From positions 4,960,001 through 5,024,000 of the forward strand of contig OY762266.1 in assembly GCA_963665285.1 (NCBI GenBank): 64,000 nucleotides of DNA, read 5' to 3'. The first letter of the stretch is position 1, and each line of letters begins with the position of its first letter. The position numbers were made by a program, and so were the translations under genes. This stretch comes from Candidatus Poribacteria bacterium (GTDB taxonomy: Bacteria > Poribacteria > WGA-4E > PCPOR2b). This document shows, piece after piece, positions 51,979 to 54,822 of this stretch. The notes under the pieces were generated by a model. That model was not told where the DNA came from. It made no database searches and worked only from the letters and a program-made list of their open reading frames with translations.

Positions 51979-52848
51979 GTGGCAAAGGAGAAGACTTTTT
52001 CTGAATACAGAGAAGATGGACATCTATGGATTACCTTGTCTGCAGGCGAGTATTATCCAGACATCTTGCCACTTGCCTGTGAACTCTATAAGCCCGTTCT
52101 CGTGACCTTCGGTCAATTGCTTAAAGAGTCTCACTCATCAAGCGACCTATTTCTTGCTATTTCTGAAACGAAGCCTCAATGGATGAGAATTCAACTTTGC
52201 CGCGTCTTCCGAAAGTACGTAAGCCCTGATACTCCTGTGGAAATGCTGAAAAAAAAGACTGCCGCACAATATATTTGTGAGCAGTTTGGTCAACGCTTTC
52301 GTGCAATAACTGAAGTGCAATCATGTTTTGATTCTCGACCAATGCCAGATGAAGCACTTTGTGCCGTCCTGTGGGAATACAAAGATCGCGGGAAGAAAGG
52401 CTACGATCTTACTGAAAGATTGTTCACAATTATCCGTGAAAATTACAAAGATTTGCATATTATTGGGCCTGAACGAGCCGGTAAAGATGTAATTTTGGGT
52501 GAGATATTTGAAGGCTATCCTAAGCCGGATCGTCCAGTAGACTTTGTTCTATATCACAATGAAACGCCCGTAGCAGTGGGGCTGGCTCGATATGATTCGG
52601 ACCGTGGGGGAGCTCAAGAGGACGATCGAACCGGGCAATACCGAGATTGTGCCAATGAGGTGCTAGGCTATGCACACCAGCAAGGTCTACCGATTAAAGT
52701 TATTTTTTTGAATGATGGTCCCGGTCTTTTACTCGGGTCAATGTGGCAAGACTATACATACATAGAAGATTCATGGCCTGGCCTTGTAAAAGTTGTCACC
52801 TTACGAATGGTCACGGCAAGAATCACGCTTGACTGGTTATTATCGTAA
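51979..52848 (+). CDS. Type II restriction endonuclease (resembles BstEII/EcaI-type enzymes)
   Basis: Directly upstream of a DNA MTase; FRKYVSPDT.VEMLK, PVDF, ARYDSDRGGAQEDDRTG and NDGPGLL motifs; subtype is from recall only. Confidence 0.72.
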   Translation: MAKEKTFSEYREDGHLWITLSAGEYYPDILPLACELYKPVLVTFGQLLKESHSSSDLFLAISETKPQWMRIQLCRVFRKYVSPDTPVEMLKKKTAAQYICEQFGQRFRAITEVQSCFDSRPMPDEALCAVLWEYKDRGKKGYDLTERLFTIIRENYKDLHIIGPERAGKDVILGEIFEGYPKPDRPVDFVLYHNETPVAVGLARYDSDRGGAQEDDRTGQYRDCANEVLGYAHQQGLPIKVIFLNDGPGLLLGSMWQDYTYIEDSWPGLVKVVTLRMVTARITLDWLLS

Positions 52849-52857
52849 GGAGGAATT

Positions 52858-54822
52858 ATGGCTATAGGTATCCCAAAAGGGTCAAACAGCGCAAAGGCAG
52901 CTGCCGCGCGTCTCGAATACGAGAAAAAGAGGCCCATATCCTCAATTTTGGAAACGCCCTCTCCCGCAGTCTGCACACTGCATACTGCTTCATCTAGAAA
53001 TGAGCTCTATTTCGGTGACAACCTACTACTACTTCAATATCTATTGAAAGAAAAGCAATTGAAAGGTAGAGTTTCACTCATTTACATAGATCCGCCTTTT
53101 GCAACACAGAGTACTTTCGTTTCTAGGAAACAAAAAAAAGCGTATTCCGATTCATTAACAGGCAGTGATTTCATCGAATTTCTTCGGGAGAGGCTGATAC
53201 TTCTGCACGAGCTATTATCACCACAAGGATCAATTTACCTTCATCTTGATGATAAGATGATGTTTGAAATGAAACTGATAATGGATGAAGTATTTGGTTC
53301 TTCAAATTATCGCAATTTAATTGTTCGAAAGAAGTGTAATCCAAAAAATTACACACGCAAGGCATACGGTAATATTGCTGACTTGATCTTGTTTTATACA
53401 AAGTCTGACAAGTACATCTGGAATCGTCCAGTTGAACCTTTATCCGAAAATAGTGCAAAAGAATATCATTATGTTGAACCTGAAACCGGTCGCCGTTTTA
53501 TGAAAGTTCCTATTCATGCACCGGGGACTAGGAATGGAGAAACAGGAAAACCGTGGCGAGGAATGATGCCACCGCCGGGCAAACACTGGCAGTATCCGCC
53601 AGCAACACTTGATAAGATGGATGCGCGCGGTGAAATTTTCTGGTCTAAGAACGGGAATCCTCGCCGCAAGGTTTATCTTGACCAACACCCCGGAGCCGGG
53701 GTGCAGGATATTTGGCTAGACCTCAAAGATGCACATAACCAGAACATCAAAATAACCGGCTACCCTACAGAGAAAAATCCGGATTTACTACGAAGAATAA
53801 TTCAAGCCTCGTCTCATCCTGGGGATTTAGTTTTAGATTGTTTTGCGGGATCTGGAACAACCCTAGCTGTAGCTGACGAACTACAACGGAACTGGATAGG
53901 GATTGATAACAGCATTGAAGCGATTACAACAATCCTAGACCGTTTCTCTCACGGACTCAAGCCCATGGGTGATTATGTAAAAAAGAGAAAAAAGGAGGAT
54001 TCAGACAATCAGCCAACGCTTTTTGACTCTCTGTTCCTGGATACTCATAAAGCCTCAAGCACAAGTAATTCACCTCATAACTCGATTGTCGATTTTTCCA
54101 TTTCAGCGATAGAAAACAAGCAAACTGAAGTTCAAAAGATAGTTAATAATTGGCTTCAGAAATCGGGCTTACTTAAGAATGCTCAGACGCCAACTCAGCA
54201 GATTAATGAATCTTCTGACTTCGGCAGCATTTGTTATTATCTTCATGAGCGAGACAAACGTTTGGGAAAAATTATAAACCAAGTTGGACCGTGTAGTCTT
54301 TATCCCCAAATGCTTCATTTTGAATTTTTAGCAGGATCGATAATTAGCCAGCAAATATCCCGACAGGCAGCAGACACCATATTTCATAGATTCCGGGCTT
54401 TGTTTGATCCATCGCCTATTACTCCCCGTCGTTTCATCAAGAAATCACCAGATGAGATTTTAGCAACAGGGGTTTCGCAACGTAAACACTCATACATTAC
54501 TGATCTGTCTGAAAGAATCATACAAGGGGACATAGATCTTGATAGAGTATCTTCTATGACCGAAGATCAAATTCGTTCCGTGCTTAAAACCGTCAAAGGA
54601 ATAGGCGATTGGACTGCAAATATGTTTTTGATATTTGGCCTAGCCAGACAAGATGTATTTCCCATACAGGATCTAGCTCTTAGAAAGACCATCAATCAGG
54701 TGTATGACATTGCCATTGATGATATTGAAGGAATGCAGAAGATTGCTAATCAATGGAAGCCATTTCGAAGTATTGCATCGTGGTACATGTACAAATATGG
54801 CAATGAATTTGCCCAACGGTAG
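52858..54822 (+). CDS. Beta-class DNA amino-methyltransferase fused to an AlkA-like HhH-GPD glycosylase
   Basis: IYIDPPF, YPTEK and DCFAGSGTT, followed by SIISQQIS and VKGIGDWTANMFLIFGLARQDVFPIQD...WKPFRS. Confidence 0.9.
   Translation: MAIGIPKGSNSAKAAAARLEYEKKRPISSILETPSPAVCTLHTASSRNELYFGDNLLLLQYLLKEKQLKGRVSLIYIDPPFATQSTFVSRKQKKAYSDSLTGSDFIEFLRERLILLHELLSPQGSIYLHLDDKMMFEMKLIMDEVFGSSNYRNLIVRKKCNPKNYTRKAYGNIADLILFYTKSDKYIWNRPVEPLSENSAKEYHYVEPETGRRFMKVPIHAPGTRNGETGKPWRGMMPPPGKHWQYPPATLDKMDARGEIFWSKNGNPRRKVYLDQHPGAGVQDIWLDLKDAHNQNIKITGYPTEKNPDLLRRIIQASSHPGDLVLDCFAGSGTTLAVADELQRNWIGIDNSIEAITTILDRFSHGLKPMGDYVKKRKKEDSDNQPTLFDSLFLDTHKASSTSNSPHNSIVDFSISAIENKQTEVQKIVNNWLQKSGLLKNAQTPTQQINESSDFGSICYYLHERDKRLGKIINQVGPCSLYPQMLHFEFLAGSIISQQISRQAADTIFHRFRALFDPSPITPRRFIKKSPDEILATGVSQRKHSYITDLSERIIQGDIDLDRVSSMTEDQIRSVLKTVKGIGDWTANMFLIFGLARQDVFPIQDLALRKTINQVYDIAIDDIEGMQKIANQWKPFRSIASWYMYKYGNEFAQR

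Follow-up and report, generated by a model that had tools for sequence, protein, structure and literature searches.

A restriction-modification (R-M) methyltransferase fused to a DNA glycosylase is encoded in a 64,000-nt stretch of a Candidatus Poribacteria genome (contig OY762266.1 of assembly GCA_963665285.1, positions 4,960,001 to 5,024,000; hereafter the window). The methylase is of the BstEII type and follows a BstEII-type restriction endonuclease; its C-terminal domain is an AlkA/Mag-type glycosylase. The fusion is optional in both directions: methylases of this family occur without the glycosylase, and the glycosylase occurs without the methylase. Given both kinds of splitting, the simplest reading that fits is that an active glycosylase for alkylated bases travels as optional cargo of an R-M cassette, and on balance we favour this reading with modest confidence. 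The fusion protein itself is already in databases as a 'modular' EcaI methylase; a fused relative in Ca. Nitrospira nitrosa is annotated 'Modification methylase EcaI (modular protein)'. We found no description of a methylase-glycosylase fusion in full-text searches of a mainly open-access literature. What is new here is that the glycosylase is detachable and repeatedly retained.

Amino-methylases are the commonest bacterial DNA methylases, and the locus addresses the question of whether they cause alkylation damage as C5-cytosine methylases do. It also supplies natural test pairs, in that each partner, the methylase as well as the glycosylase, exists in nature both joined to the other and on its own.

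The endonuclease and the methylase-glycosylase fusion

The window is part of a 6.26-Mb genome assembled as a single contig and 99% complete. Two plus-strand open reading frames (ORFs) lie 9 nt apart, at 51979–52848 (289 amino acids (aa), GTG start) and 52858–54822 (654 aa). As the original prediction had proposed, an endonuclease gene is followed by one unbroken ORF, with no internal stop in the translation of 52858–54822. The endonuclease is a full-length homologue of R.BstEII, as in BstEII-type Type IIP R-M systems: it matches the BstEII structure PDB 9ibq with an E-value of 9e-87 and shares 51% identity over 285 aa with the pBSO1 endonuclease (R.BstEII). Searches of Pfam, NCBIfam and PADLOC with the same 289-aa protein gave no match.

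The adjacent methylase is, as predicted, a beta-class amino-methylase, with motif IV (DPPF, aa 78–81, 53089–53100) preceding motif I (FAGSG, aa 329–333, 53842–53856). It matches Pfam N6_N4_Mtase over aa 72–359 (E 4e-49) and PADLOC MTase_II (E 4e-141), and its core (aa 46–375, 52993–53982) is 60% identical to the pBSO1 methylase WP_053532338.1, the neighbour of R.BstEII. The reference system, from Geobacillus stearothermophilus (PDB 9ibq/9ic8; pBSO1 NZ_CP128495.1), differs in layout: its methylase lacks a glycosylase, its genes are convergent and a helix-turn-helix gene lies upstream. In the window, by contrast, the endonuclease and methylase genes are co-oriented in that order, the methylase carries the glycosylase and no controller ORF of at least 60 aa is listed.

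Judged by homology, the endonuclease would cut unmethylated GGTNACC, the BstEII target, and the methylase would shield the host from it. GGTNACC is somewhat depleted in the genome (an observed/expected ratio of 0.85, the fifth lowest among 64 gapped palindromes) and occurs nowhere in the cassette, both of which are weak signals. Methylation is probably at adenine N6, as suggested by the DPPF motif, by fold matches that are mostly to N6-adenine enzymes, and by the block of another GGTNACC cutter, Eco91I, by adenine methylation reported in PMC3299994. The portion of the UTEX 3222 preprint available to us states no methylation type for GGTNACC. Separate beta-class methylases of ∼345 aa, 50–55% identical to the core, occur in seven related genomes (L037–L042); the six loci read contain no BstEII-type endonuclease.

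The methylase and glycosylase meet at a natural boundary. Most of what the original prediction called a linker is methylase: aa 376–436 (53983–54165) align with the natural C-terminal tail of 13 unfused BstEII-type methylases, which stop there, and within it aa 414–435 form a strand and a helix in the predicted model, with a predicted local distance difference test (pLDDT) score of ∼90. A connector does exist, but it comprises only about aa 437–452 (54166–54213); its sequence is variable and aa 441–452 are modelled with pLDDT below 50. Its length is constrained, with the W432–L462 spacing held at 29–33 aa in all 118 fused proteins. The full-length model (predicted template modelling score 0.66) does not fix whether the methylase and glycosylase domains pack together.

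The fusion junction recurs in contigs from two studies, and the fusion in many lineages. A 3275-nt contig of run X4 spans 51759–55033 and a contig of run X8, from a different study, spans 53874–55100, each with zero differences from the window and neither with a stop or frameshift between the domains; these are assembled contigs rather than raw reads, and a link between either run and the source of the window is possible. Both Pfam domains are present in 118 of the best 120 full-length relatives, at 52–96% identity, so the architecture is not unique: it is present in 118 or more protein clusters, drawn from several phyla. The closest named relatives (88–95% identity) are Candidatus Poribacteria, and other named hosts include Nitrospira, Desulfomonile, a Syntrophaceae bacterium and Armatimonadota. 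In 25 of the 26 metagenome loci that include the start of the methylase, the endonuclease lies directly upstream; the other neighbours are unrelated. These observations leave almost no room for a misassembly, or for a stop codon between two neighbours having been lost recently and neutrally, given the identical contigs over the junction, the 118 fused clusters down to 52% identity, and ratios of nonsynonymous to synonymous substitution (dN/dS) below 0.5 in all 28 pairs compared. An assembly artefact is refuted outright. Stop-codon loss was nonetheless likely the original event, since unfused methylases end where the tail ends.

The fusion was found in only one of 301 genomes sampled from another phylum. 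Glycosylases of intermediate score in that sample proved generic, with Trp at position 645, and none of the eight such loci read has a BstEII-type gene alongside. No relative of the fusion appeared among 28 candidate stretches in viral contigs, five phage records hold only distant glycosylases (24–34%), and none of 423 matching plasmid records covers at least 80% of the fusion.

The glycosylase domain begins near aa 453 (54214), close to the claimed start at ∼54210, and runs to aa 654 (54214–54819). It matches Pfam HhH-GPD at aa 493–624 (40.4 bits against a cut-off of 26.2) and B. halodurans Mag (BhMag, 2h56) with an E-value of 1e-22. Its predicted model (pLDDT 92.7) has the two-domain helical fold of the AlkA/Mag family and aligns in Foldseek with Deinococcus radiodurans AlkA2 (DrAlkA2, 2yg8), Schizosaccharomyces pombe Mag1 (3s6i) and Mag2 (4b21), and BhMag at template modelling (TM) scores of 0.80–0.87. 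All share the HhH hairpin, the wedge loop and the Asp; the window domain is 25–30% identical to these proteins and differs in its fusion to a methylase, its Tyr645 and its hairpin Asp. It is not an AlkA of the E. coli type (NCBIfam PRK10308, 37.6 bits against a cut-off of 229): the match to E. coli AlkA is confined to aa 157–271, and the N-terminal domain of that protein is not present. Pfam gave no Fe-S cluster family match in the glycosylase.

The motifs named in the original prediction are intact, with KGIGDWTA at aa 580–587 (the hairpin KGIGDWT, aa 580–586, at 54595–54615) and PIQD at aa 602–605. Asp605 (54670–54672), the catalytic position, and Trp585 occur in 119 of 119 fused proteins, and Asp605 also in all 73 close stand-alone and all 180 generic relatives. 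Trp585 occupies the position of the lyase lysine in bifunctional HhH enzymes. One family feature departs from the norm. Tyr645 (54790–54792) replaces the conserved C-terminal Trp, W272 of E. coli AlkA, and would line the base pocket, judging by the AlkA structure. The position remains aromatic: it is Tyr in 99% of 121 fused copies and Phe or Tyr in all 73 close stand-alone copies, against Trp in 91% and Tyr in 9% of 180 generic relatives and Trp in 2h56, Mag1, Mag2 and DrAlkA2. Together with Asp584 (88% of fused copies; mostly Arg, 51%, in generic relatives) and Ala607, Tyr645 forms a clade signature that sets the group apart from housekeeping relatives.

The glycosylase domain is under purifying selection, with dN/dS of 0.06–0.48 in the 28 unsaturated pairs retained from the 276 that 24 sequences form. 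Most likely it is an active monofunctional glycosylase, as its conserved residues suggest. We consider it improbable that the domain is instead a non-catalytic helper that binds abasic sites or DNA without cutting, shielding them or keeping the methylase on DNA. The model for such a helper would be S. pombe Mag2, which is reported to be inactive; Mag2 is among the best matches to the predicted fold (TM 0.86–0.87) and also has the Asp, and the acidic hairpin residue D584 and A607 are unusual. Yet the QQ(L/I)S wedge is near-invariant, as are W585 and D605, and position 502 is Lys or Arg rather than acidic as in Mag2, where the acidic residue presumably has an inhibitory role. Moreover, the stand-alone copies described below are under selection with no methylase to assist.

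Repeated separation of methylase and glycosylase

Ranking relatives on the methylase domain alone exposes many methylases that lack the fusion. A whole glycosylase is missing from 43 of the 120 closest methylase domains, two of which carry a partial one. These unfused methylases are scattered through the methylase tree, where they force at least 13 changes of label, up to three of which are partial or split cases. Some of the 43 may be split genes rather than true losses.

To place the glycosylases, we built a tree of 44 rows chosen from 95 under the LG+G4 model. Fused domains cluster with their stand-alone kin to the exclusion of generic AlkA-like proteins (93/84 support). All 11 sampled stand-alone glycosylases, or orphans, lie within a subclade of fused domains that has 100/99 support; they nest in the fused clade at least five times, counting the changes forced by the starred branches, and a clade of fused domains only is opposed by the approximately unbiased (AU) test (p=0.0002). 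Across 118 fused proteins, pairwise identities of methylase and glycosylase are correlated (r=0.90), a value that none of 500 permutations reached. Co-tracking identities and a single group apart from generic AlkA-like proteins fit one origin of the fusion.

Two orphans still bear the mark of their origin: G027 and G023 retain the methylase tail, at 33.5 and 23.0 bits against shuffle maxima of 2.3 and 0.6, respectively. Others have settled in new surroundings. In genus g11 the orphan is present in nine of 10 genomes, in all nine just downstream of the same PhyH-family gene, and the genes are constrained (dN/dS 0.09–0.22 in 10 of 10 pairs); a BstEII-type endonuclease was found in none of the 10 genomes. 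A methylase remnant at first seemed to precede the g11 orphans, but this signal was lost against shuffled controls. Another orphan adjoins Fe-S assembly genes in two metagenome contigs. The orphans are near-fixed among metabolic or Fe-S genes, outside defence islands, and none of 14 loci of stand-alone clade members has BstEII-type R-M neighbours.

Generic AlkA-like proteins also form associations of their own. At L005:4261-6975, the methylase of an unfused BstEII-type pair overlaps at its end a generic AlkA-like gene that does not belong to the fused clade. The same genome has two further AlkA-like genes, and this is the only adjacent R-M/AlkA-like case seen; it is possibly an independent pairing, or a model of how the fusion began. 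In P0277, P0348 and P0378, a generic AlkA-like domain is fused behind an O6-methylguanine methyltransferase domain, which indicates that this glycosylase type readily forms C-terminal fusions.

Repair cargo, self-repair or defence

In the reading we favour, a housekeeping glycosylase of the Mag/AlkA2 type would have joined once, at the natural C-terminus of the methylase. The domain would flip out an alkylated base (3-methyladenine (3mA), 7-methylguanine, possibly 1-methyladenine (1mA) or 3-methylcytosine (3mC)), Asp605 would serve cleavage of the N-glycosidic bond, and host base excision repair would complete the repair. Alkylation damage of any source could be handled, including that from S-adenosylmethionine or any methylase of the cell, and the glycosylase would need no hand-over from its own methylase. 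Such cargo would help hosts in which AlkA, Tag and MPG are scarce, and may aid persistence of the cassette.

The repair background of the hosts is broadly compatible with this. Among 61 related genomes we found none with MPG, one with Tag, 28 with AlkD-family and 32 with AlkB-like genes. The orphans show that a mobile defence cassette has left a conserved gene of repair type in lineages in which neither MPG nor Tag was found. Apart from the fused domain, the window genome yielded no close AlkA-like gene and no AlkB-like match, and since its congeners mostly lack an AlkA-like gene, the domain brings in a repair family absent from most of them. AlkA-like and AlkB-like genes occur, respectively, in 0 and 12 of 12 genomes of g8, 9 and 3 of 10 of g11, and 7 and 1 of 7 of f4, a complementarity not counted as evidence because it involves too few independent lineages. 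Domain loss where the host has other repair was considered and found unsupported; G061 and G063, genomes of unstated completeness, gave no AlkA, MPG or Tag match.

Several observations weigh against optional repair cargo. Because the methylase has shed the domain many times, as the 43 methylases without a whole glycosylase attest, its benefit would be small or host-dependent; in the congener G003, nearly the whole cassette, glycosylase included, has been deleted via a 9-nt near-repeat. Sixteen of 20 genomes of the window's genus persist without an AlkA-like gene. AlkD-family genes are present in the window genome and in 10 of 10 g11 genomes, so neither is without candidates for alkylpurine repair. 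The methylase tail was recovered upstream of only two of 15 stand-alone genes tested (five of them generic controls), and fission of the orphans other than G027 and G023 is suggested by the tree alone. The related sequences and genomes are kin rather than independent samples. Finally, Tyr645, Asp584 and Ala607 could signal another substrate or weaker binding.

A more specific role, which the original prediction had put forward as built-in repair, is dedicated self-repair: the methylase would occasionally hit the wrong nitrogen of the flipped adenine or a neighbouring base, producing 1mA, 3mA or 3mC, and the tethered glycosylase would remove the lesion where it arose, in the way that Vsr and Mig deal with C5-methylase damage. 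Vsr with Dcm, and Mig.MthI with M.MthTI, are among the closest parallels, being repair enzymes linked to C5 methylases. The co-occurrence of ALKB2 with DNMT (via Hains et al. 2026) is a further case of a repair enzyme that travels with a DNA methylase. These systems fix T:G mismatches or 3mC arising from C5 methylases, whereas the window pairs an alkylpurine-type glycosylase with an amino-methylase of the N6/N4 family. The precedent invoked for off-target damage holds in part: C5 methylases do make 3mC off target, according to Hains et al. 2026 and to Rosic 2018 as cited there, but the enzyme here is a beta-class amino-methylase, and we found no paper on such lesions from adenine (amino-) methylases. 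The chemistry is possible, since PMC6746446 reports that the AlkA-family relatives Mag1 (yeast), DrAlkA2 (Deinococcus) and AfAlkA (Archaeoglobus) excise 3mC and 1mA.

Self-repair could explain both the origin and the persistence of the fusion. It draws on the co-descent of methylase and glycosylase at a conserved spacing and on the regular association of the fusion with the endonuclease, and the AlkA-like gene overlapping an unfused methylase at L005 may represent a second recruitment. Built-in repair is not obligatory, however, because 43 of 120 methylases lack a whole glycosylase and orphans are conserved alone, under selection without a methylase. The changes of label on the methylase tree and the unfused state of M.BstEII itself also count against it, and we regard dedicated self-repair as rather unlikely. 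A bolder variant, which we offer as a conjecture of low probability, combines the two: adenine methylases would make 1mA or 3mA off target, the clade with the Tyr645 pocket would have evolved on the R-M cassette to clear these lesions, and freed copies would have been captured at least five times by methylase-rich hosts as a genome-wide repair gene. If this is true, R-M cassettes would not only cause alkylation damage but also deliver the means to repair it.

The other function originally proposed, a second defence arm, seems to us less probable still. Here the domain would excise modified purines (e.g. 7-deazaguanines or deoxyinosine) from phages able to withstand the endonuclease, and the abasic sites would halt phage replication. 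HhH glycosylases are described as co-opted for defence several times (bioRxiv 10.1101/2025.10.29.685425 and PMC12191111), phages that replace deoxyguanosine with deoxyinosine are reported (PMC13091555), and position 645 in the pocket is unlike that of housekeeping relatives. The fused copies share with the Dag1 and Dag2 glycosylases of the bioRxiv study, and with the END nucleases of PMC12191111, an HhH fold in a mobile, low-GC, AT-rich defence setting; the orphans do not share that context, lying instead among metabolic or Fe-S genes.

The protein itself also departs from these systems. According to the two reports, Dags are far diverged, Dag1 being bifunctional with a catalytic Lys, and END nucleases join an inactive EndoIII domain to a nuclease; the window domain, closely related to AlkA and apparently intact, is attached to a methylase. 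The Dag1 hallmarks, a Lys-Asp pair in a protein that cannot be linked to relatives by sequence, are absent, for the lyase position holds Trp and the domain is readily linked to BhMag as a plain relative of the housekeeping Mag/AlkA2 enzymes. Housekeeping glycosylases that the bioRxiv study assayed, AlkA included, conferred no protection in E. coli. The architecture and the intact motifs of the original prediction hold, the fusion is recurrent, and both of the functional proposals are weaker than claimed.

The cassette and its neighbourhood

The two genes lie in a 3.1-kb cassette at 51879–54972, between a GYD-domain gene and a short-chain dehydrogenase/reductase (SDR) gene. The block had been noted as AT-richer than its flanks, and its GC content is indeed 42.2% against 49.6% for the genome, a value as low as in only 0.4% of 2024 genome windows of the same size. 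Empty sites join both flanks. The fullest of these, in G016 and G014, depart from the window at 51878 and rejoin it at 54973, and an empty-site contig is also present in run X4. Among 11 aligned loci of this genus, the flanks are joined without the cassette in seven others. As part of the explanation favoured above, the cassette may well be a horizontally moving BstEII-type R-M unit. We found no integrase, terminal repeat or clear target duplication at the cassette. An 18-nt direct repeat (83%) flanks the two genes at 51918 and 54848, and the 10-mer TAGTTTCGCT occurs near each cassette end (51929–51938 and 54995–55004); either may be due to chance.

Where present in congeners, the cassette is in various states. 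It is intact in G000 and G011 (L033), and in G012 the front of the endonuclease is gone. In G001 the endonuclease and methylase N-terminus have been lost beside a DDE transposase, with the glycosylase frame still open; this transposase and a Type ISP restriction-modification gene stand at the former position of the endonuclease and methylase start (L053:8603-14293).

Promoter and terminator scans gave counts at the level of shuffled sequence (9 against 7.0 and 3 against 3.0, respectively). In RNA libraries of relatives, contigs match portions of the two genes and of the two domains; because this coverage is patchy and may include DNA, it is no demonstration of expression.

Elsewhere in the window, two intergenic repeats of ∼140–170 nt, at 50414–50556 and 51269–51435, have 39 and 6 genome copies, respectively (at least 80% identity over at least 80% of their length). 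They are present or absent among congeners at the same sites and resemble miniature inverted-repeat transposable elements (MITEs) or repetitive extragenic palindromic (REP) elements. A 211-aa ORF at 59134–59769 matches DUF7255 at threshold (30.6 against 27 bits) and is kept in neighbouring relatives.

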